Positions 30,953 through 58,029 of a stretch of DNA of 58,029 nt are shown here, one piece after another. Every line of letters starts with the position of its first letter. Positions within the stretch are counted from its first letter, which is position 1. Under the pieces are notes generated by a model, which did not search any database, had not been told where the DNA came from, and worked only from the letters and a program-made list of their open reading frames with translations. Position numbers and translations under genes: made by a program. Source of the stretch: Synechococcales cyanobacterium bin2.concoct.b11b12b14.033 (GTDB lineage: Bacteria; Cyanobacteriota; Vampirovibrionia; Caenarcaniphilales; Caenarcanaceae); assembly GCA_013298875.1 (NCBI GenBank), contig JAAFJH010000003.1, positions 1 through 58,029 of the forward strand. Direction: 5' to 3'.

Positions 30953-32446
30953 TTAAAGCTGTACGGACTCAATCTCCTTAATTAGAGCTTGGGGATTTTT
31001 CTCTAATTCACCTATTAGATTTAATAATTTATCCGACCATCCAGATATGTATGTGATTCTGTCTTTTAATTGAACTGTCCCGTAGCAAGACATGTCAATA
31101 CTAAAAATTTTAGGTTCTGACTTACTTCTTTCCTGATAATTATTAAGAGCTTTCTGAACTCTATCAATACCATCCATACCTTGCATATCAGATAAAATTA
31201 TTATTCTCTCATAAGTTTCAGATGCTTTATCAAAAATACTAGAAAATTGCGTACCTTTAGGTTCAGTTTTGCTAATTATTTGGTCTACAAGACTTAAAAG
31301 AGTATCTTTTCTATTCAGGATGAGATATTCCGCATCATCAGAAAAAATCATTAAATGAGAGTCTATATTTTTCTTATAAAAAGAAGCTGCAAATATGGAT
31401 GCAATTTCAATCATATTCATATCAGATTTAATAGAAGGAGAATCAGTCATTGATCCTGAAGCATCCACCACAATTAAAGATCTACCTTCTAGTTGGGGTG
31501 TATTTTCTAACGCTATATCGGCTGCATTACTTATACTTTCCAGTACTTTACTCGCACTAGGAAGATTCATTTTTTTAATTTCTTTATATGCAGCATAGAA
31601 TCTATAAGGTAACAATTTACTATTCTTTATAGAATCTGGATTCTCTAATAAATCTAGAGCCTTTTTCAATACTGAGTCAGAAACTACAGACAATATATTT
31701 CTTAAATTTCTCAGTAACACCATATATCCTAATTTATTATTAATAATTAAATCTTCCCAGATTTGTTGTTTCTTTTCGGTCTTTTCTTCTTCGGTTGTGG
31801 TATTTTGTAATCCTTTAGATAAATTAGTTTCCCAAGTACCTTCTACCAATAATTCATTTTTAATAAGTTTCTCTAATGAATTAGAGTTATTAGCTTGCGG
31901 TATAGGTTTAATGATATTCACTATATCGACTAATTTCCATTGCTTCTCTCTCATCTGATACTTAGCTAATTGATAATCATTAAATTTATTAAATGCTTTT
32001 CTGAATCCCTTTTTTAGCCCATTAGGGATCGATACTTCTATTTTATCTTTAGATTGAATTGAATCATAGAATGCCAGAATTTCAGACATATCATCAGGTC
32101 TTTGGATAATTTGTTCAAAGAAATATTTCTTTTTTATAGTCCATTCACTATCTGGTTTGAACTCTAAACGAGCCAAATATCCAGCCAGTACATGAGAAGT
32201 TGATCTCATATTCGCATTAATTCTGGCATAAAGTGCTAGTTTAGCTGTAAAGATAGGATCATTTATCTTAAGGATCAGATCCCTTAAGTTGTTAAGGGTA
32301 TCTCTTTTACATCTATAAAAACGGTCTTCAATAAATGAAGTCAACACACTAGCGATTAACTCCATCTTTGAAGTTAATTTAAAGGCATCTACATTTTCAC
32401 AATTAAGAGCTAAAGATTGATTAATAGAGGTATTGAATTTAGACAT
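30953..32446 (-). CDS. rsr: Ro60/TROVE-vWA RNA-binding protein
   Basis: ALYAR..NMRS, QRPDDMSE, YQLAKY, TWE, LGYMVLLRNLRNI, LLPYRFYAAY; MIDAS VDASGSM..GT..ILSDMQ. Confidence 0.9.
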   Translation of the reverse strand: MSKFNTSINQSLALNCENVDAFKLTSKMELIASVLTSFIEDRFYRCKRDTLNNLRDLILKINDPIFTAKLALYARINANMRSTSHVLAGYLARLEFKPDSEWTIKKKYFFEQIIQRPDDMSEILAFYDSIQSKDKIEVSIPNGLKKGFRKAFNKFNDYQLAKYQMREKQWKLVDIVNIIKPIPQANNSNSLEKLIKNELLVEGTWETNLSKGLQNTTTEEEKTEKKQQIWEDLIINNKLGYMVLLRNLRNILSVVSDSVLKKALDLLENPDSIKNSKLLPYRFYAAYKEIKKMNLPSASKVLESISNAADIALENTPQLEGRSLIVVDASGSMTDSPSIKSDMNMIEIASIFAASFYKKNIDSHLMIFSDDAEYLILNRKDTLLSLVDQIISKTEPKGTQFSSIFDKASETYERIIILSDMQGMDGIDRVQKALNNYQERSKSEPKIFSIDMSCYGTVQLKDRITYISGWSDKLLNLIGELEKNPQALIKEIESVQL

Positions 32447-37694: not shown

Positions 37695-37808
37695 TTATAC
37701 TGTAGTTCTTTTGCTTGTAGATAACTAATGATTATGTTAATATAGCATAAATCTTTTTATATTAATGAATAGGAATTTAAAGTCCCTTTTTTGTTATCAG
37801 TAAAATCC

Positions 37809-37847
37809 GGTTTAAAACCTCGTACTTTAGGACGGTGAGTATGTCAA
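37809..37847 (+). mobile_element. minimal IS200/IS605 end fusion (PATE-like)
   Basis: GGTTTAAAACCTCGTACTTTAGGACGG-TGAGTATGTCAA resembles a left end joined to a right end. Confidence 0.55.
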
Positions 37848-40504: not shown

Positions 40505-41765
40505 GTTATTATTTTGGTGATTTAGGGTAAGATAAATAACAGATCAAAAAAACAAATGCAGATAAAAGAAATCCCCTTCAATATAGCGAAAGAGTTTTTA
40601 ACCGAATATCATTATTTACATTCAATCCCGAAAGGTACATCTTATTGTATTGGGGCTTTTCCTAGTTTGGACTCTAATGAATTAGAGGGAGTTATTTGTT
40701 TCGGGAATCCTATTGCTAAGAATTTATGGAAAGGTATATTTAATGTACAGGTGAGTGTTAAGGAACTTTCCAGATTAGCGATCAAAGAAGGTTCGGGCTT
40801 TATTGCTTCTCAGTTGATCAGTAAAGCTATTAAATTGGTAGATTGTGATGCGATTATATCTTATGCGGATACAAATCAAGGGCATGTTGGGATTGTATAT
40901 CAAGCTACTAATTGGCTGTATTTAGGTATTACTCAAAAGAGAACCGAATATTATTTGAAGTCTCGTCCTGACCTTCATAGTAGATCTTTATTTGGAGACA
41001 AGACAGTGCAGGAACTCCAGAAGATTTATGGTGAAGATCTAGATAAGAGGGAAACTCCCTATAAATTGAAATATCTTTATTTAAAAACCAAAAAAGCAAA
41101 GAAAAACCTTAAAGCAACCACAGAATCTTATGTTAAGACTATAGATAGTATATTAAGGAAATATATTTATTGTTGGGTAAATAAATTGAATGATAAGAAA
41201 TATGTAGGGAAAACAAGTAGACCTTTAAGTCATCGATATACTGCATTCAACCCCATAAATGGTTCTAATGGGAGGTATTTTATGAGGGCTATTTGTAAGT
41301 ACGGAAAAGAAAACTTTCAATGTTCAATATTAGAAGAGTTGCCTGGCAATATAACTTCTGAAGAGTTGAGCCAAAAAGAGCTTTATTGGATCAATAAGCT
41401 AAATACATTAAGTCCTGCGGGTTATAATGTTAGTATTCCGGATTCCGAGAATATAGGTAGTGATACTAGACCGGACATTAAAGGTATTGCTAGACCTAAA
41501 TATGTGAGGGAGAAAATTAAACTAAATTGGGAATCAAATACTAGAAAGTTTATTAGAGGTAAACTAGTTAGTCCAGAAGGAAAGTTGATTGAATTTAAGA
41601 ATTTAGCTAAATTCTTAAATGAAACAGAAGGTTTAGGTCATAAAGATGAAAGAAATATAACTGCTTTATTGAAGGGGGAAAGATATTATGTGAAGGGATG
41701 GCGAAAATATACTTCTAGTATTGATTTAATTCCCTTTTCAGAATGGGAAAAACCTAAACCAGTAT

Positions 41766-41885
41766 TTGACATACACTCTGCTCTAAAGAGCAAAGGAACT
41801 TAACGCTTCATTGAAATTTGCTAGTAAACTAGACTTACAATTTCTCTGCGTTCGTTTATAGTCTCCCAATGCCCTGTGGCGACTT
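41766..41885 (-). ncRNA. omegaRNA (reRNA) scaffold of the tnpB element
   Basis: overlaps the tnpB 3' end and right end; conserved in the orphan copy at 54741..54857. Confidence 0.7.
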
Positions 41886-42957
41886 TCTCTATATTTTTAG
41901 CGGCGTTTTCATCTCGATCATGAACAGTTCCACATCTTAAACATTCAACTGAACGAACTTTTAAATCAAGTTTTCCCCATTTATACCCGCAACTAGAACA
42001 AACTTGACTTGTAGGTTCCCAACGATTAATTACCCGACACTCTCTGCCAAACTTCTCAGACTTGCTTTCACACAAAGTTCTAAACTCTCTCCAGCCTTGC
42101 AAGCTTATTACTCGTGCCAATTTATGGTTTTTTACCATCCCCGACACGTTTAAATCTTCCAAAACAATTAGTTGATTTTCCTTTACTATTTTGGTTGACA
42201 GCTTGTGCAGAAAGTCTTTGCGTATATTTGCAATTTGATTATGCTTTTTAGCAAGTTTTAGTTTGGCTTTCAGTCTTCGGTTTGAGCCTTTTGATTTCCT
42301 TGCTAAAGCTTTTTGCAACTTCCTAACTTTTTTGTCAAGTTTTGTGTAGTTTGGGCTTTCAGCCGTCTCTCCATTGCTCAAAAATGCAAAAGTTTTTATT
42401 CCCAAATCAATACCGATACTTTGGTTTTTAGCCTCAATACTGACTGGTTCAACCTCTACGACAAAACTTAAAAAATAGCAATCAGTACAATCTTTAATTA
42501 CCGTTACCGAACTTGGCTCAGATGGCATTTCTCTTGACCAAATCGGGGTTAAATTACCAACTTTAGCCAAATAGACTTCATTATCTTTCACTGAAAAAGC
42601 ATTACTAGCGAACTCAGCCGACTGGTAGTTAGTCTTTTTCTTGAATTTTGGATATTTTATTTTTTTGCCTTTTCTTTTCCCTTTACAAGAATCAAAAAAG
42701 TTTTTAAATGCCCCTTCCAGCTTTCGGAGAGACTGTTGTAATGGAACAGATGAAACATTATTTAGCCATTCTCTTTCTTTTGTCTTTTTTGATTCAGTGA
42801 GCAAAGCCGACAATTCTTTAGAGTTTGGTTTCTTTTCAGCTTGCTTGCAAATAGCCAAAGCATCATTATACACAATCCTCACACAACCAAACAATTGAGC
42901 TAAACTCTCTTTCTGTTGGTCTGTTGGGTAAAATCTATATTGATACCTAGCTTTCAT
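41821..42957 (-). CDS. tnpB: RNA-guided endonuclease TnpB
   Basis: YRFYPT..LFGCVR; RuvC GIDLG, VLEDL, DRDENAAKNI; CSSC/CLRC zinc ribbon; catalytic residues intact. Confidence 0.95.
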   Translation of the reverse strand: MKARYQYRFYPTDQQKESLAQLFGCVRIVYNDALAICKQAEKKPNSKELSALLTESKKTKEREWLNNVSSVPLQQSLRKLEGAFKNFFDSCKGKRKGKKIKYPKFKKKTNYQSAEFASNAFSVKDNEVYLAKVGNLTPIWSREMPSEPSSVTVIKDCTDCYFLSFVVEVEPVSIEAKNQSIGIDLGIKTFAFLSNGETAESPNYTKLDKKVRKLQKALARKSKGSNRRLKAKLKLAKKHNQIANIRKDFLHKLSTKIVKENQLIVLEDLNVSGMVKNHKLARVISLQGWREFRTLCESKSEKFGRECRVINRWEPTSQVCSSCGYKWGKLDLKVRSVECLRCGTVHDRDENAAKNIEKVATGHWETINERREIVSLVY

Positions 42958-43250
42958 GCTTTATGCTAAAATGATTTAACTGTTAAATTATACTACAAGA
43001 CTCAGTAAATGCCGTCCTGAAGTTAGGGACTTTTACCTAATTTTTTCCGATAATGAAGAAACAAAACAAAAAATGTTAAAAACCTTAAATAAAAGGGTAG
43101 GTTATAAGAAGCAACTTATTAGTCCTACAGGAGAATTAATTACATTTTTTAATTATTCTGAAGTAGAAGATTTAATAGGTAGCTCTAAAGATAGTATATG
43201 TAGCTTCTATAAAAACCCTAAACGAAAAACATTTAAAGGATGGATAAAAA

Positions 43251-43448
43251 ATGATAATTAATGGTAAATATCAAATAATAGCAATTGACCGATATAGATG
43301 GAATAATAAATGTTCGGATGATGAAAAGCCTGAATATAATCTAGAGGTTGATCTATATCATATAAAAACTGGCGAAACAAGCAAAGTAAGGGGAGATGAT
43401 TTTAACCGGATAATAAGGGATTTAGTTATTGATGATGAGATGTATTAG
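43251..43448 (+). CDS. hypothetical protein
   Basis: ORF track; overlaps both neighbours. Confidence 0.45.
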   Translation: MIINGKYQIIAIDRYRWNNKCSDDEKPEYNLEVDLYHIKTGETSKVRGDDFNRIIRDLVIDDEMY

Positions 43449-44940
43449 AGATAAAGTGGATAGCGATTTAAAATACAGTCATCAAAAGCAAATAAGGGTA
43501 CAAAAAGAAATACAAGATATACAGAATAATATTTCTTATCCTATTTGTAGAATTGAAGAAAGTATAATAACACCTATTCCTCTTAAGGAAGCTAAACCAT
43601 TTATTTTAGAGTATGAATATTTAGGTACAATGTCTACTAGAATAATTCAATGTTTTGGTCTTTATTATCATGATATTTTATCGGGAGCTATCGTGTTCTC
43701 TTTACCCCCTTCAAAAGGGGTTACTGAGTCAATATTAGGCAAAGAGCATAAAGATAAGGTTTGTGTACTTTCTCGAGGTGCTTGTGCGTATTGGACACAC
43801 CTCCATTCAGGTTCTAAACTGATCTCTTATGGTACAAGATGGATGTCTCAAAACACTAAATATAAATGTTTTATAGCATATGGAGATCCAACCGCTAATG
43901 AGATCGGGACTTTATATCAAGCTTGTAACTGGATCTATACAGGACAGACAGAATCTAAAACTGAATATTATCTAAATAATAAATGGGTTTCGGGTTATGA
44001 GTTTAGGTTACAAAGAAAAAGAGAAACTCTCCCAAACAATATACTGACTAGACCTGGCTCTAAAAAACATAGATATGTTCTGATAAAAGGGAAAGATAAA
44101 AGAGAGACAAAACAACTAAAAAAACAGTTAAGACTCAATAGTTTCCCTTATCTTAAGAGACACAATATAATCTCTAAAACTACAGCTTTCAATATTAGTC
44201 TTCAAGATGTTAAGAAAAGCAATATTATTTACAAGATAACCAATAACGTGAATGATAAAGTCTACATAGGACAGACAATTCAAAATATTACTGAAAGATA
44301 TCCTGGATTAGATTTAACTAGTTCGAGAACTACAGGGTCTATACTTCAACATGCAGCCTTAAAGTACGGTAACGATAAATTTTCGGTAGAGGTTATCTAT
44401 CAATCTCCTTTTATAAATAGTCAAGAAATATTAGATGATCTGAACTCTAAAGAAAAATATTTTATTGATTTATTTCAGTCTAATAAAACGGGCTACAATA
44501 TAAGAGAGGGAGGTAAAAATCATTTTAGAACACCTGCTGAAAAGAAAAAACTATCAAACAGCCTAGTCGCTAAGAAATCTTATTTGAGGATATTTTGTGA
44601 TCCTGAAGGTAATAAAATAGAAGTATTAAATCTATCCGGTTTCTGTAAAGAGAATAAATTAGACTTTTCAGCTATGCAGAAAGTCAGTATAGGAAAAAAA
44701 TATTCTTATAAAGGATGGAGAAAATGGGAAGTAGGTCTGACAAAATATACCACACTTGAGAGTAATGAGAGAAATATAAAGGGTTCCGTCAAGGAATATA
44801 ATTTAATCAAAGAAGGAACCCCTATATATATAAAAAACCTTAAAAAATTCAGTCAGGAAAATAATTTAAATTATTCAAGCATGAGAGCTTTAGTGCAAAA
44901 AAGAACAAAAACATATAAAGGATATTTGATTAATATTTAG
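43429..44940 (+). CDS. Mom-like GNAT + GIY-YIG endonuclease fusion
   Basis: EYEYLGTM, LSRGAC, AYGDPTANEIGTLYQACNWIYTG; IIYKITNNVNDKVYIGQT..KEKYFI..GYN; YKGW repeats. Confidence 0.75.
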   Translation: MMMRCIRDKVDSDLKYSHQKQIRVQKEIQDIQNNISYPICRIEESIITPIPLKEAKPFILEYEYLGTMSTRIIQCFGLYYHDILSGAIVFSLPPSKGVTESILGKEHKDKVCVLSRGACAYWTHLHSGSKLISYGTRWMSQNTKYKCFIAYGDPTANEIGTLYQACNWIYTGQTESKTEYYLNNKWVSGYEFRLQRKRETLPNNILTRPGSKKHRYVLIKGKDKRETKQLKKQLRLNSFPYLKRHNIISKTTAFNISLQDVKKSNIIYKITNNVNDKVYIGQTIQNITERYPGLDLTSSRTTGSILQHAALKYGNDKFSVEVIYQSPFINSQEILDDLNSKEKYFIDLFQSNKTGYNIREGGKNHFRTPAEKKKLSNSLVAKKSYLRIFCDPEGNKIEVLNLSGFCKENKLDFSAMQKVSIGKKYSYKGWRKWEVGLTKYTTLESNERNIKGSVKEYNLIKEGTPIYIKNLKKFSQENNLNYSSMRALVQKRTKTYKGYLINI

Positions 44941-46623: not shown

Positions 46624-47637
46624 ATGGCAAAACATTTTCTATATTCTGCTGAGGCACGCACTATATCACTGAAACAAGTCTTTAACATGACTGAAGAGGA
46701 AGCTCATGAGCTATTCAAGCAAATCAGGTGGGAAGAAAATGCTGGTAATCCTATTTGTCCTCATTGTGGTAGCCGTCATAAAATTTATTGGGTGAAGTCC
46801 AAAAAGGCTTGGAAATGTGCTAGATGTACTAAAAGGTTTTCGGTTACTTCCGGAACTATATTTGCCCACCATAAGCTCTTATTGAAAGATTATTTAGCCG
46901 CTATTGTGATTTTTGCAAACTCAGTTAAGGGAATTAGTGCCTCTCAGCTTTGTCGAGACCTAGACGTTCAACATTTAACTGCTTTTGTTTTATCTCATAA
47001 AATCAGAGAAGCTTTAGTGAACTTTAGAGATACTAGCTTACTAGAAGGAGAAGTTGAAATTGATGGTGCTTATTTCGGGGGTTACGTGAAGCCCAAGAAT
47101 AAGAAAGAAGACCGAATTGACCGTAGATTAGCTGAAAATCAAAACCCAAATAAAAGATGCGTTATGGTTATACGTGAAAGAAGCCAAACTCCTGAATTGA
47201 AGGGTGCGGCTAGAACCGTTACATTTATCGTGAAGGAAGAAAATCAAGCCGCCACACAGAGAATTGATTCCGATGCTTCAATCCATGCAGATCAACATGC
47301 AAGTTATGATTTATTACATTCAAAGTTTGACGTGAAGCGTGTAAACCACGATAAGGAGTATAAGAATAAAGACACAAAAGCATGTACTAATTTAGCCGAA
47401 AGTTATTTTGCAAGGTTCACGAGATGCTTTGTAGGTCAACACCATAGAATGAGCCCAGTTTATTTACCATATTATGCTCAAGAGATAGCTTACAGAGAAG
47501 ATACCAGAAGGAAAAGTAATGGCGATATAGTGATTGATATTTTATCCAAAGCACTAAAAAGCCCAACCAGTAAAGAGTTGTGTGGTTATTGGCAAGGAAA
47601 TCATCGTAAAGTGGAATTGTTAGGATTGACTGCTTGA
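46624..47637 (+). CDS. IS1595-family transposase
   Basis: CPHCG..WKCARC zinc ribbon, FSVTSGTIF, EVEIDGAYFGG, IHADQ, VNH..TNLAESYF. Confidence 0.9.
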   Translation: MAKHFLYSAEARTISLKQVFNMTEEEAHELFKQIRWEENAGNPICPHCGSRHKIYWVKSKKAWKCARCTKRFSVTSGTIFAHHKLLLKDYLAAIVIFANSVKGISASQLCRDLDVQHLTAFVLSHKIREALVNFRDTSLLEGEVEIDGAYFGGYVKPKNKKEDRIDRRLAENQNPNKRCVMVIRERSQTPELKGAARTVTFIVKEENQAATQRIDSDASIHADQHASYDLLHSKFDVKRVNHDKEYKNKDTKACTNLAESYFARFTRCFVGQHHRMSPVYLPYYAQEIAYREDTRRKSNGDIVIDILSKALKSPTSKELCGYWQGNHRKVELLGLTA

Positions 47638-50314: not shown

Positions 50315-50452
50315 ATGAAACAAATACTTATATCTTTAGCATTCAGCTTAGTTTTATTACTGAATCAAATAAGTTATGCTAGTTGTGAATGCACGGGCTG
50401 CGATACCTGTACAAGGGGTGATTGCTCCTGTAGTTCTTGTGAATGTGATTAA
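50315..50452 (+). CDS. secreted metallothionein-like peptide copy 1 (45 aa)
   Basis: signal peptide + SCECTGCDTCTRGDCSCSSCECD; GGGAG RBS; paralogue at 53049. Confidence 0.7.
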   Translation: MKQILISLAFSLVLLLNQISYASCECTGCDTCTRGDCSCSSCECD

Positions 50453-50510
50453 TGACTGTAACTAATAGACAGTAATTCAGAGGACATCATTAGACTAACT
50501 GGTGATGTTC
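50381..50510 (+). repeat. about 130-bp direct repeat copy 1, including terminator
   Basis: matches 53112..53241; ends in GGACATCA..TGATGTTC plus T-run. Confidence 0.85.
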
Positions 50511-50562
50511 TTTTTCTTTTTGTTTGTTATTTTTAGTTTGTCTCTAAGTTATCAATGGTTAT

Positions 50563-53048: not shown

Positions 53049-53183
53049 GTGAAATCGATTATATGTTTAAGTTTTGGTTTAGTATTATGGCTAGGTCAAG
53101 CAAGTCATGCAAGTTGTGAATGCACAGGCTGCGATACCTGTACTTATGGTGATTGCTCCTGTAGTTCCTGCGAATGTGATTAA
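53049..53183 (+). CDS. secreted metallothionein-like peptide copy 2 (44 aa)
   Basis: AAAGGAG RBS, GTG start; signal + SCECTGCDTCTYGDCSCSSCECD. Confidence 0.7.
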   Translation: MKSIICLSFGLVLWLGQASHASCECTGCDTCTYGDCSCSSCECD

Positions 53184-53241
53184 TGACTGTAACTAATAGA
53201 CAGTAATTCAGAGGACATCATTAGACTAACTGGTGATGTCC
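53112..53241 (+). repeat. about 130-bp direct repeat copy 2, including terminator
   Basis: matches 50381..50510. Confidence 0.85.
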
Positions 53242-53299
53242 TTTTTTCTCTTTATTTGTTAAATTTACGTTACATTTTACTAAAATTTTTTATAGCTAA

Positions 53300-53729: not shown

Positions 53730-54146
53730 TTAAAGTTGGCTTTTTGTCCAATAGGCAATTTTATTTTTAATTTCTTTCTGGATATTGCTATTTCTGGCTT
53801 GAAGCTGAAGACTACTCATAACATTGTCAATTATATCTACCGTTATATTCTTTTTTACTTTGATTAAATCAGCCACTTGAGCGGATGTTAATGGACTTTC
53901 AGCTTCTCTAAGGACTTCAAAAATCAAAATTGATAGTTCACCATGAGCAAATAATTGATTTTTAGCCCTGAACTGCCGGGATTGAATTGAAGACAAATTA
54001 TAGTTCGGGTCAAATACTTTTATTGAAGCATTAAGGTGGGTTATGACTTCAGTAAATTTTTTGATTTCTTTTTGGTGATATTCAATTAATCCAAGTAGTT
54101 CAGCTTTCTTGTTTACAAGGGCACTTATAACGTGAGGTTCTGTCAT
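53730..54146 (-). CDS. coiled-coil + winged-HTH-like protein
   Basis: HVISALV.K.AEL.G.I..L.A.I..FDP; VLREAESPLTSAQVA. Confidence 0.6.
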   Translation of the reverse strand: MTEPHVISALVNKKAELLGLIEYHQKEIKKFTEVITHLNASIKVFDPNYNLSSIQSRQFRAKNQLFAHGELSILIFEVLREAESPLTSAQVADLIKVKKNITVDIIDNVMSSLQLQARNSNIQKEIKNKIAYWTKSQL

Positions 54147-54272
54147 TAAACTAAATGTATTAGTGAAAATATACTACCTTCTTTCTATCTCTTTTTCCTG
54201 TATATAATGGTTACCTTTGCTAGGTTATTTCGATAATTCCTATATCTCTCAGAAAACTCTAATACTTTTTCT

Positions 54273-54674
54273 TTAAATCCATTCAGTTACTTTAACTTCA
54301 TTAGGATCTGTTGGTAGATCTTTGAACCTATCAAGTTTTTGTTTTAATTCTTTTTGGTTAGAATCTGCAATTTTCAATTCTTCAATAAAATCCTTTATAG
54401 ACTCTTCAAAGCTTTCAAACTTTTTTCTTGCCTCTTCTGCTGTTTTTTCAAGATAAGCTATTTTATCTGATATGTTAGAACCTTTACTTTCTTCTATCGG
54501 GATAGAAAAACTTTTATAGACAGAGAAAGGCTTATAATCGATTGGAGGAATAAAGAAATTTTCAAATTTTGATCGTTCATCAGGGGATAAAAACAAATCC
54601 ATTTTATATTTTGGGTAAGTGTTTGGTATTATCAGGAAAATTGGGTAGAGTCCTGTAATTGACAAATTATACAC
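54273..54674 (-). CDS. hypothetical protein (probable start MDLF near 54602)
   Basis: ORF track; coiled-coil C-terminus. Confidence 0.45.
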   Translation of the reverse strand: MYNLSITGLYPIFLIIPNTYPKYKMDLFLSPDERSKFENFFIPPIDYKPFSVYKSFSIPIEESKGSNISDKIAYLEKTAEEARKKFESFEESIKDFIEELKIADSNQKELKQKLDRFKDLPTDPNEVKVTEWI

Positions 54675-54687
54675 TTTAGCTTAAGAT
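54659..54687 (+). promoter_or_regulatory. sigma70-type promoter upstream of the orphan omegaRNA
   Basis: TTGACA-N17-TAAGAT. Confidence 0.6.
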
Positions 54688-54740
54688 TTAAACAACTAAG
54701 GAAAATTTGCGATAACCAAGCAAGTTCAACTAAAAGCAAT

Positions 54741-54877
54741 AAGTCGCCATGGGGCATCGGGAGACTATAAACGAACGCAGAGAAATAGTCAGACTAGTTT
54801 ACTAGCAAATTTCAATGAAGCGTTAAAAATCTTTGCTCTTAGCAAAGGGTATGTCAATTTAGCATCTACACATAATT
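54741..54877 (+). ncRNA. stand-alone TnpB omegaRNA (scaffold 54741..54857 plus putative guide)
   Basis: about 12 substitutions and a 3-nt gap versus the reverse complement of 41766..41885; ends GTATGTCAA. Confidence 0.7.
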
Positions 54878-55034
54878 TTACTATATAGATGATCCCAAAT
54901 ACAAAATCAGAAATTGCCCTTAAAGCACTTCAAGAAATTAAAACATATTTAGAATATACTTTTCCTGATAGATATAAATTCAATACAGTGTGGTATATAG
55001 TATCTGAAGCCCTGAATAAAATAGAAGCAACTAC

Positions 55035-55391
55035 ATGAAGCCTTACTTGCACGCAAAAAACTCAGTTAAGAAATATGGGGGTAACTGGAAAGACTATATA
55101 GAAATACATGATTTTTTAGATTCAACTAAAGCTCATTTTCCAGATATGAGACATAGAGCTATATTACATAATTCATTTGGATGCTTCATAGCAGAAAAAG
55201 TATTCGGACATCTAATAACCAACTCAGAAGGTAAAGAAGTCTCGGTACGAGATATAGCGGAAGATCATATAATTGAAGACATAGGTAAAATTCCAACCCT
55301 TCAAGATTATCTAGTAGGTATGCCTATGTATACTTGGCTAGGTAATGGAAACCAAAAAAAAACACCCCGATTAACAATTAATTTAGACTAA
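55035..55391 (+). CDS. conserved phage protein (DUF6915-like, His-rich)
   Basis: PYLHAKNSVKKYGG..IHDFLDSTK..RHRAILH..AEDHIIEDIG. Confidence 0.65.
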   Translation: MKPYLHAKNSVKKYGGNWKDYIEIHDFLDSTKAHFPDMRHRAILHNSFGCFIAEKVFGHLITNSEGKEVSVRDIAEDHIIEDIGKIPTLQDYLVGMPMYTWLGNGNQKKTPRLTINLD

Positions 55392-55852
55392 TGGACACTC
55401 TAAAAAACTTAAAAACAATTCTTCTTGAACACAATGAGAAGATCAAACAATTAAAAACTGAAATGACATCAGAGGTAAAAGAGAAATTGAAGCTTATCTT
55501 CAATGAAATCTTTTTATCATTTCCTCAAATTGAGAATTTAAACTGGGCACAATATACCCCTTACTTTAATGATGGAGATCCTTGTGAGTTTAGATTCTCT
55601 GGATTAAATGTAAAACTAAAACCTGAATATGTAAAGAACAGGGAAGCTTACGAATCAGAGGAACAAGGTTTTGATTTGACTGATTTGGAACATTATGCTC
55701 ATAGTTTACCTTTGAATCTTATTGAAACGTTAGAGGGTTTAAATTCTACTCTTTACCTAAGTGAAGATTTGCTTGAGGATATATTTGGAGATCATGCTGA
55801 AGTAATTGTCACGCCTGAAAAATTAGAAGTATTAGACTATAGTCATGATTAA
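55391..55852 (+). CDS. conserved phage protein
   Basis: WAQYTPYFNDGDPCEF..IFGDH..YSHD; TAATG coupling. Confidence 0.65.
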   Translation: MDTLKNLKTILLEHNEKIKQLKTEMTSEVKEKLKLIFNEIFLSFPQIENLNWAQYTPYFNDGDPCEFRFSGLNVKLKPEYVKNREAYESEEQGFDLTDLEHYAHSLPLNLIETLEGLNSTLYLSEDLLEDIFGDHAEVIVTPEKLEVLDYSHD

Positions 55853-56593: not shown

Positions 56594-56728
56594 ATGTTAA
56601 AATACATATTCGCACTATTAGTTTTCTTCTTCTTCTCATCTTTTGCTTATGCGGCACCAAACGCAACAGCAAATCAAACCAGATATAAATTCATCAAAGT
56701 TTTTGGGTTTGAAACCCCGTGCTTCTAG
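56594..56728 (+). pseudogene. signal-peptide gene truncated by the tnpB element left end
   Basis: MLKYIFALLVFFFFSSFAYA.. reads into the IS end and stops inside its hairpin. Confidence 0.5.
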
Positions 56729-56761
56729 CACGGCTTTATATTTTTATTCTACAATAATATG

Positions 56762-56790
56762 TTGACAGTTTTAGGTTCTCAACATATAAT
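56762..56790 (+). promoter_or_regulatory. consensus sigma70 promoter of tnpB
   Basis: TTGACA-N17-TATAAT. Confidence 0.8.
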
Positions 56791-56819
56791 GAATATATAG
56801 CGGTGCGAAAATAAAAACT

Positions 56820-58029
56820 ATGTTTAAGACTCAGAAAAATCAAATTAGAGGATTGTCTAAAACAGAATATTTAGCTCTACAGGAAATGTGTAGGTTGTCG
56901 AAAAATCTATACAATGTTGGGCTATATTGCATCAGGCAGTGTTTTTTTGCTGAGAAAACATTTCTTCGCTATGAATCAAACTACCACCTATGTAAAACTA
57001 ATGAAAATTACCAACTATTAAATACTGATATTGCTCAACAAACCTTAAAAGTGGTAGATAGAAGTTTTCGTTCTTTCTTTAATTTAATAAAAAAAGCAAA
57101 ATCAGGTAATTACCAATTTAATCAAATATCTTTACCTCACTATCTTAAGAAAGATGGCTACTTTAGTTTAATTATTCCGAGAATAAAAGTTAAAGATGGT
57201 TTCTTTAAAGTACCTATGTCTAAAGATTTCAAAGATAAATATGGTGAAGTAAAGTTACCTTTTCCTGATAGATTGCTTGATAGAAAGTTAAAAGAAGTAC
57301 GAATCTATCCTAAGTATAATTGTCAATTTTTTGAGGTTGAATTTATTACAGAGGAAGAACCACAAATTGTTGAGTTTAAGTCTGATAATGCTTTATCTAT
57401 TGATTTAGGACTTGATAATTTAGCTACTTGTGTTAGTACTAATGGGGCATCGTTTATTATCGATGGTCGCAAATTAAAAAGTTATAACCATTGGTACAAC
57501 AAAACAAATGCTAAATTACAATCAATCAAAGACAAGCAAGGTATTAAAAGTCTGACTAAAAGACAAGGACAATTATTATCAAAAAGAAATAATCAAGTCC
57601 GAGATTATTTAAGCAAAACAGCTAGATATATTATCGAAAATTGTCTTAGTTTAGATATAGGAACTTTAATAGTTGGAACTAATAAAGGCTGGAAACAAGA
57701 TATTAACATCGGAAAAAAGAATAATCAGAACTTTGTTCAAATTCCTTTTTGTTCTTTAAAAGAGAAGTTGAAATCTTTATGTGAAACTTATGGAATCAAA
57801 TATATAGAGCAAGAAGAATCCTATACCAGCAAGGCAAGTGCATTAGATAATGACTCTATTCCTATCTATAATCCTAATAATACAACTAAATATACTTTCA
57901 GTGGCAAAAGAGTTAAAAGAGGATTGTACCAATCAAAAGACGGTATTAAGGTTAATGCAGATGCTAATGGTGCATGGAATATAGGACGTAAAAGTAAGCA
58001 TAAGGGATTTTCCCAAGTGTGTAATGGGC
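56820..58029 (+). CDS. tnpB: RNA-guided endonuclease TnpB, 3' partial (absent from ORF track)
   Basis: MFKTQKNQ..SKNLYN; SIDLGLDNLA; QEESYTSKAS; RVKRGLY; NADANGAWNI. Confidence 0.92.
   Translation, partial: MFKTQKNQIRGLSKTEYLALQEMCRLSKNLYNVGLYCIRQCFFAEKTFLRYESNYHLCKTNENYQLLNTDIAQQTLKVVDRSFRSFFNLIKKAKSGNYQFNQISLPHYLKKDGYFSLIIPRIKVKDGFFKVPMSKDFKDKYGEVKLPFPDRLLDRKLKEVRIYPKYNCQFFEVEFITEEEPQIVEFKSDNALSIDLGLDNLATCVSTNGASFIIDGRKLKSYNHWYNKTNAKLQSIKDKQGIKSLTKRQGQLLSKRNNQVRDYLSKTARYIIENCLSLDIGTLIVGTNKGWKQDINIGKKNNQNFVQIPFCSLKEKLKSLCETYGIKYIEQEESYTSKASALDNDSIPIYNPNNTTKYTFSGKRVKRGLYQSKDGIKVNADANGAWNIGRKSKHKGFSQVCNG

Follow-up and report, generated by a model that had tools for sequence, protein, structure and literature searches.

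A probable gene-less TnpB-type mini-element with a predicted intact omegaRNA scaffold in a phage-like contig of a cyanobacterial genome bin

OMEGA systems are said to include stand-alone trans-acting omegaRNAs, which have no adjacent nuclease gene and depend on a nuclease encoded elsewhere, and TldR proteins are nuclease-dead TnpB-like repressors that work with retargeted guides. In IS608, the right end is cleaved at a TCAA site located 10 nt past the hairpin, an arrangement that is also observed in the unit described here. The PATE-like elements of Geobacillus stearothermophilus "often encode omegaRNAs" that need TnpB in trans (Meers et al. 2023 preprint, PMC10055086), and tnpB has already been reported in cyanophage, in a text that contains neither the word "orphan" nor the word "solo" (bioRxiv 10.64898/2026.02.14.705889).

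The window, which denotes the whole stretch of DNA that was analysed, is the entire 58,029-nt contig C69 of a genome bin (G000) of 2.15 Mb in 145 contigs. The contig is phage-like and encodes tail-fibre proteins, NAMPT, NMN adenylyltransferase, homing endonucleases and a TROVE/Ro60-like protein (phrog_850, 30953-32446). An IS1595-family DDE transposase gene at 46624-47637 (DDE_Tnp_IS1595, Zn_ribbon_IS1595) adds to its mobile-element load, and an 87% identical repeat (50328-50515 and 53059-53246) consists of a pair of small paralogous genes; the Cys-rich peptides they encode appear, by eye, to be secreted, and nearly the same 3' UTR, with a hairpin and a T-run, follows each gene. The features of the resident tnpB element (tnpB#1) and of the gene-less unit are given below, where R1 is a covariance model built only from the right ends of 30 TnpB-linked copies, with no orphans in training.

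41766..41890, minus strand: omegaRNA scaffold of the tnpB#1 element, scoring 118.3 bits with R1, to whose training set this copy belonged
41821..42957, minus strand: tnpB#1, 378 aa (Pfam OrfB_IS605, Cas12f1-like_TNB, HTH_OrfB_IS605); no other cognate nuclease gene was found in the bin
42958..43054, minus strand: left end of the tnpB#1 element with its ATTA motif (43051-43054), a weak left-end HMM match (6.9 bits, E=5.9)
54628..54631, plus strand: ATTA (TTA) target-adjacent motif (TAM), immediately 5' of the presumed left-end start
54632..54658, plus strand: putative remnant of the left-end start, TCAGGAAAATTGGGT...AGTCC, without the left-end hairpin; consensus regex, moderate support
54659..54687, plus strand: predicted sigma-70-like promoter TTGACA-17-TAAGAT, 10/12 consensus
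54688..54735, plus strand: leader with the presumed internal-deletion junction (tnpB 5' and 3' remnants), at a putative position
54736..54857, plus strand: predicted complete omegaRNA scaffold, equal to the right end and finishing in TCAA; 109.5 bits with R1, positions 1-127 of 127, one non-standard pair
54831..54847, plus strand: terminal hairpin CTTTGCT-CTT-AGCAAAG, with 10 nt between it and the end of the element
54858..54877, plus strand: guide position, read directly, which is the insertion flank and the 5' UTR of the next gene
54889..55038, plus strand: first downstream ORF, 49 aa, starting 31 nt past the element and overlapping the start of the DUF6915 gene (55035-55391)

The stretch 54632-54857 is rather probably a gene-less, internally deleted ISDra2-like TnpB element of the IS200/IS605 group, about 226 nt long and of the PATE/MITE-like mini-element kind. 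Its parts would be a left-end start, the left-end promoter, an internal deletion, and the tnpB tail with the right end, the left boundary being placed with moderate confidence. The window unit resembles the described PATEs in that it has no protein gene, keeps the right end with the omegaRNA, has its TnpB elsewhere, occurs in several copies and has its flank as guide; it also possesses a right end with a subterminal hairpin and a cleavage motif, and copies at unrelated sites. It differs in being located in a phage genome, in having as left end a short start without the transposase-bound hairpin, and in its consensus promoter about 50 nt from the scaffold. The ISDra2-type TnpB is represented by the chains 8bf8, 8exa and 8h1j, to which TnpB#1 aligns over residues 5-368 (E=2e-63), and the resident element shares with this type an RNA that overlaps the tnpB 3' end and stops at the transposon boundary, whereas the nuclease gene is deleted in the window orphan and the TAM here appears to be TTA-like, as read from 5' junctions only. 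Compared with the stand-alone omegaRNAs of OMEGA systems, the window copy is traceable to a mini-transposon. The likeness to TldR is that a protein of the TnpB family and a guide RNA occur together in a phage or prophage, but TnpB#1 keeps its RuvC motifs, the window guide has no separate target, and no sign of repression was observed.

A 100-nt inverted repeat links 41786-41885 and 54741-54840 with 90% complementarity, and the gapped blastn match of 54741-54857 to 41885-41766 shows 87.5% identity over 120 columns, in agreement with the repeat reported in the original prediction. The homology opens 64 nt ahead of the tnpB stop, past the HDRDENAAKN motif, and stops at 54857. As had been stated, it starts past the last RuvC motif, and no tnpB body was found at the orphan locus, which contains only the last 64 nt of tnpB-homologous sequence with a stop codon immediately 5'. 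The omegaRNA of an ISDra2-like TnpB is placed at a tnpB 3' end; the window orphan has no such gene in front of it. The 226-nt unit carries no protein gene between its ends, and the one ORF that reaches into it, 54273-54674 on the minus strand, does so only through a doubtful extension to a GTG start, an ATG being available at 54602. The name orphan is correct with regard to the missing tnpB, but the copy is not unique, since the proposed scan of the whole genome for further copies detected a second one on contig C52 of the same bin, in which promoter, leader and scaffold all recur (77% over 217-220 nt) and whose flanking genes are unrelated to the window locus. A related orphan was observed in another genus of the same family (genome G002, contig C3), upstream of a TROVE-domain gene.

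By alignment and predicted pairing, the orphan scaffold is structurally intact and belongs to the family of the resident TnpB's own omegaRNA. Like the window orphan and the tnpB#1 right end, the C52 copy (103.0 bits) and the G002:C3 copy (76.4 bits) match R1 over the full model length, and the G002 orphan scores as high as the linked copies of its own genome (73.1 and 71.8). The R1 alignment comprises 32 pairs, 21 of which exhibit compensatory changes (RNAalifold). In a test on seven copies from the bin, G002 and L039 (four linked and three orphan), with an alignment that was fitted to R1 and so favours high pairing, standard pairs made up 95.4% of the pair cells compared with 80.8% in shuffles (0/500 reach it), and both sides change in 19/32 pairs. 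The terminal hairpin, present and intact as first described, has a different sequence in each copy, and few of its cells are unpaired. Relative to the tnpB#1 scaffold, the orphan has this hairpin shortened to a perfect 7-bp stem; some of the other differences keep pairs (A-U to G-C, C-G to U-G), others lie in linkers, and one mismatch of the orphan scaffold recurs in L039, a TnpB-linked relative. At 54857 the scaffold finishes with GTATGTCAA, and 31 TnpB-linked relatives have the same sequence or a one- or two-base variant of it, with a constant TCAA end.

Differential patterns were also observed between orphan and linked copies. The orphans read CCATGGGGCATC where the resident linked copies read CCACAGGGCATT, which suggests that the orphans descend from a sister sub-lineage; CCATGGGGCATC and AAAAATC are common to all three orphans, whereas the variable middle arm of each orphan resembles that of its resident linked copy, a mosaic for which either exchange between copies or common descent within the sister sub-lineage could account. 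The A-rich linker AAAAATC creates a terminator-like site on the minus strand, where the terminal hairpin of 54831-54847 is followed by ATTTTTAA, in all three orphans and in none of the linked copies. A micro-peptide from the ATG in CCATGGGG of the orphans was considered and rejected, as this ATG is also found in the TnpB-linked L038 and L057 and represents a sub-family state and not an orphan novelty. No Rfam family matches the scaffold (0 at the gathering score, 0 at E<=1). The scaffold pattern gave two matches in genome_contigs and two in metagenome_contigs, the latter both being TnpB-linked relatives, namely L038 (with tnpA) and L039. In IMG/VR, one chance match at a ribosome-binding region was obtained, the other scaffold patterns gave 0 matches, and the leader pattern likewise gave 0.

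The original prediction had allowed the orphan no left end, and this needs revision: a left-end-start motif lies behind TTA at 54629-54646, though the left-end hairpin is missing. The consensus regex of the left-end start, derived from same-phylum relatives and written after the window sequence had been seen, yields 44 matches in 4.3 M bin positions with a single window match at 54632 on the plus strand, and eight matches in the bin when the TAM is included in front, with the single window match at 54629-54646. In the tnpB#1 element (43051-43054, reverse complement) and in a micro-element (37793-37796), the left-end start likewise stands behind a TTA or TTA-like motif; same-phylum relatives have TTTA, CTTA, TTCA or TTGA there. 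The window left end was reached neither by the left-end HMM (E<=10) nor by single-sequence nhmmer (E<=100), its local alignment to the tnpB#1 left end is not significant (z=1.8), and the likeness is one seen by eye. The left-end hairpin was not found in the window copy or the C52 copy, and in the tnpB#1 element its 5' arm is degenerate.

The predicted promoter was found again at 54659-54687. It is the best promoter-like site of the region, where the total number of such sites is at chance (4 found, 4.5 expected). The 80 nt of promoter and leader are strongly alike in the window and C52 copies (z=28, 0/500 shuffles), the C52 promoter being TTGACA-18-TAAGAT, and the similarity of the leader to tnpB coding sequence is weak. 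The promoter of the G002 orphan agrees with the consensus at 12/12 positions and matches the left-end tnpB promoter of the full-length element on G002:C4 at 25/30 nt (TTGACA-N17; 0/500 shuffles reach the score), and an exact 14-mer at the left-end start is common to both. On this homology in the G002 copy, the promoter of the window unit probably descends from a left-end tnpB promoter too, and it is probably not an addition of the orphan's own.

Gene-less relatives are frequent in this IS family. Five same-phylum genomes gave 50 listed R1 matches, 30 of which were fetched as loci, and 10 of these 30 had no TnpB-like match within 1.5 kb; each of the ten has a left-end HMM match (E-values of 1e-17 to 8e-7), and in the three that were inspected at sequence level the left end is directly upstream of the scaffold on the same strand. 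Two of these three units are about 190 nt long, being left-end hairpin plus scaffold, compared with about 226 nt for the window unit. Such left-end-plus-omegaRNA elements, also described in PMC10055086, leave little ground for calling the orphan "domesticated". How small a unit can become is exhibited by the 51-nt micro-element at 37797-37847, which is located behind GTTA (37793-37796), contains only a left-end start (TCAGTAAAAT...), one hairpin (CCTCGTAC-TTTA-GGACGG) and, joined to it without a gap, a right-end tip (GGTGAGTATGTCAA), and looks like a recombination product of the left-end and right-end hairpins of the same IS family. The larger mini-elements retain a complete scaffold, a pattern that speaks for selection acting on the RNA.

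The candidate partner nuclease is TnpB#1, in which the DLGIK, LEDLN and HDRDEN motifs are present and the RuvC motifs are kept. Relatives of TnpB#1 (identity up to 75%) were detected by protein search in 148 of the 401 genomes sampled from the phylum, and are rare within the bin's own class, e.g., 1/169 in family f2. The RNA was found in two of nine family genomes, and the TnpB clade in the same two. The intact scaffold of the resident TnpB's own family and the strong promoter-like site make loading in trans plausible, as originally suggested; the retargeting attached to that suggestion did not stand. Given the sister sub-lineage suggested for the orphans, compatibility of the orphan RNA with TnpB#1 is an assumption. 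No cognate Y1 transposase was found in the bin, in which the single PF01797 hit (contig C4) has an internal stop and no end of this IS family was found on the same contig, and the hairpin-less unit is nevertheless present at two loci of the bin (window and C52).

Within 40556-43261, a Mom + GIY-YIG fusion gene has the tnpB#1 element at its 3' end, with the stop codon of the fusion gene (41801-41803) inside the right end of the element, and a 62-aa ORF at 43073-43261 is weakly like the second C-terminal ...KGW.K module of the paralogue 43429-44940 (E about 0.3), so that the insertion may have split a gene paralogous to 43429-44940. Contigs of the DNA runs diverge after 41293 (loose ends, X2-X4) or before 43057 (X3), which hints at a strain variant with other sequence across the tnpB#1 region. 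A second nuclease gene, tnpB#2 (56820-58028), was overlooked in the original prediction; it lies 2 kb downstream of the orphan, is unrelated to tnpB#1, runs off the contig after 403 aa and has a 92.8% identical partial copy on contig C109. Its element (56694-58028) has a left-end HMM match at 56686-56740 (E=4.5e-8) after TTCA, and this left end also carries a promoter TTGACA-17-TATAAT (about 56762-56790). As a partner of the orphan, tnpB#2 was rejected, its protein being 24% identical to TnpB#1, the R1 scan of the bin having given no third type of scaffold, and its own RNA lying beyond the contig end.

The reading of the unit as an inert relic, a dead and immobile IS leftover whose promoter-like site and fold are residues of recent origin and whose RNA is unused, would account for the absent left-end hairpin, the lack of a cognate transposase among the genes of the bin and the promoter-like sites that are no commoner than in shuffles. 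We consider it unlikely, as three orphans at least 23% apart keep nearly all pairs, exhibit compensatory changes and have their indels confined to loops and arm tips. A truly decayed copy looks different: the remnant L036, a named record with this RNA from a Spirulina MAG, scores 65.5 bits over the full model length, with seven broken pairs and the TCAA end lost. Moreover, all three orphans possess a perfect TTGACA -35 box, and the deletions spare the whole 127-position scaffold, unlike in the 51-nt micro-element.

The surroundings of the unit bear on a second alternative. Each of the three orphans reads toward an ORF on its own strand, with the ATG 29-31 nt beyond the end of the element; no terminator was found 3' of the guide on the plus strand, and the divergent intergenic region would measure only about 60 nt without the insert. 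These observations would suit a promoter/leader cassette, which would persist because its consensus promoter drives the downstream phage genes; the scaffold would then be a structured 5' UTR and not a DNA-targeting guide, and TnpB might bind or cut it to tune those genes. The window insert is located at the end of a TTTATA-18-TATTAT site with TG, and insertion at TTA inside -10-like boxes could produce the 29-31-nt spacing equally; the maintained pairing of the full scaffold would be left unexplained, and the cassette is quite improbable as the main explanation. In G002:C3 (L006, 2-1507), the ATG within the right-end motif GTATGTCAA is in frame with the TROVE-domain ORF. Homologues of the DUF6915 gene are 42-54% identical and were found in 3 of the 300 other genomes of the class that were searched, with distant matches only in the phage collection.

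A search for sequencing runs that contain 53800-55800 returned no RNA run and four DNA runs (X1-X4) of one study, which may be the source of the assembly. Contigs of these runs span the left junction in X1-X3 and, in all four runs (X1-X4), the right junction, and break within the shared scaffold repeat at 41803-41829 and 54797-54823; no joint skipping 54632-54857, as expected for an empty-site allele, was found in the contigs of the four runs, contigs being a form that drops rare variants. An 18-nt in-frame insertion after 54297 occurs in three of the four runs. The search for a syntenic relative with an empty site found no relative of the 109-aa upstream ORF in IMG/VR.

The guide position reads as first described, and the 16-mer 54858-54873 has only itself as a match at 0-1 mismatch in the window and the bin; the two 2-mismatch matches in the bin carry no TAM, which was taken as TTA-like from 5' junctions only, and ten shuffled guides gave 0-12 matches each. 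In eight other family genomes, the guide was matched at two mismatches only, with 10 matches compared with nine for a reversed control, and the 28 exact 16-mers in IMG/VR include none with TTA in front (0/28), their flank identity reaching at most 9/18 bases. The proposed comparison of the guide with host and phage genomes thus returned no TAM-flanked target other than its own flank in these three collections, and the guide, with a self-match alone and no TAM-adjacent second target, would point solely to its own locus without the insert. It is not a new guide against host DNA or a competing phage, but the contiguous insertion flank, with TTA sitting where the left end would begin; among the three targets that had been proposed, "the empty allele" fits, and the other two do not. 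A domesticated trans guide retargeted against host DNA or an unrelated competing phage, suggested by the promoter-driven scaffold, the intact TnpB in the genome and a guide unlike that of the full element, is highly improbable on these results, and the orphan omegaRNA is not a retargeted weapon.

As an internally deleted mini-element, the unit would keep a short left-end start behind its TTA target motif; a promoter, probably the former left-end tnpB promoter, now about 50 nt from the RNA gene; the last ~65-85 nt of tnpB; and the whole right end, which is the full omegaRNA scaffold. A transcript from TTGACA-17-TAAGAT would cross the scaffold into the flank, whose first 16-20 bases would become the guide by position, as the rule would be for every element of this IS200/IS605-type family here. 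The intact TnpB encoded 13 kb away (41821-42957) would load the orphan RNA in trans, and the complex would cut only TTA plus the flank, that is, the same phage locus without the insert, which would arise by excision or come with a co-infecting relative. Recombinational repair would then restore or spread the mini-element, and the same promoter would also read into the downstream operon. To judge from these sequence comparisons, the resident TnpB can probably make use of the mini-element in trans, for its retention or homing.

A more speculative extension, which we regard as distinctly doubtful, is that the lineage gave up transposition and is now a fixed TnpB-dependent cassette for allele drive or marker exclusion against co-infecting relatives without the insert, in which TnpB, by binding or processing the shared transcript, might also couple the nuclease level to the expression of the downstream genes. 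It draws on the loss of the left-end hairpin in both copies of the bin, with right-end hairpins that drift yet stay paired, and on a consensus promoter and paired scaffold kept at at least three loci in two genera, each time accompanied by a cognate tnpB and reading into a gene that starts 29-31 nt on.

Read as a mini-element, the unit adds a clean phage-borne example to the known class of gene-less IS200/IS605 derivatives that are reduced to promoter and guide-RNA scaffold and rely on TnpB made elsewhere. The deletions that spare exactly the 127-position scaffold, and the pairing across diverged orphans, support selection on the guide RNA and not only on transposase sites. In the annotation of phages, the first reading of "orphan omegaRNAs with new guides" should be that of mini-insertions with a local-flank guide. 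If true, homing between co-infecting phages would set TnpB beside the homing endonucleases that crowd the same genome region.
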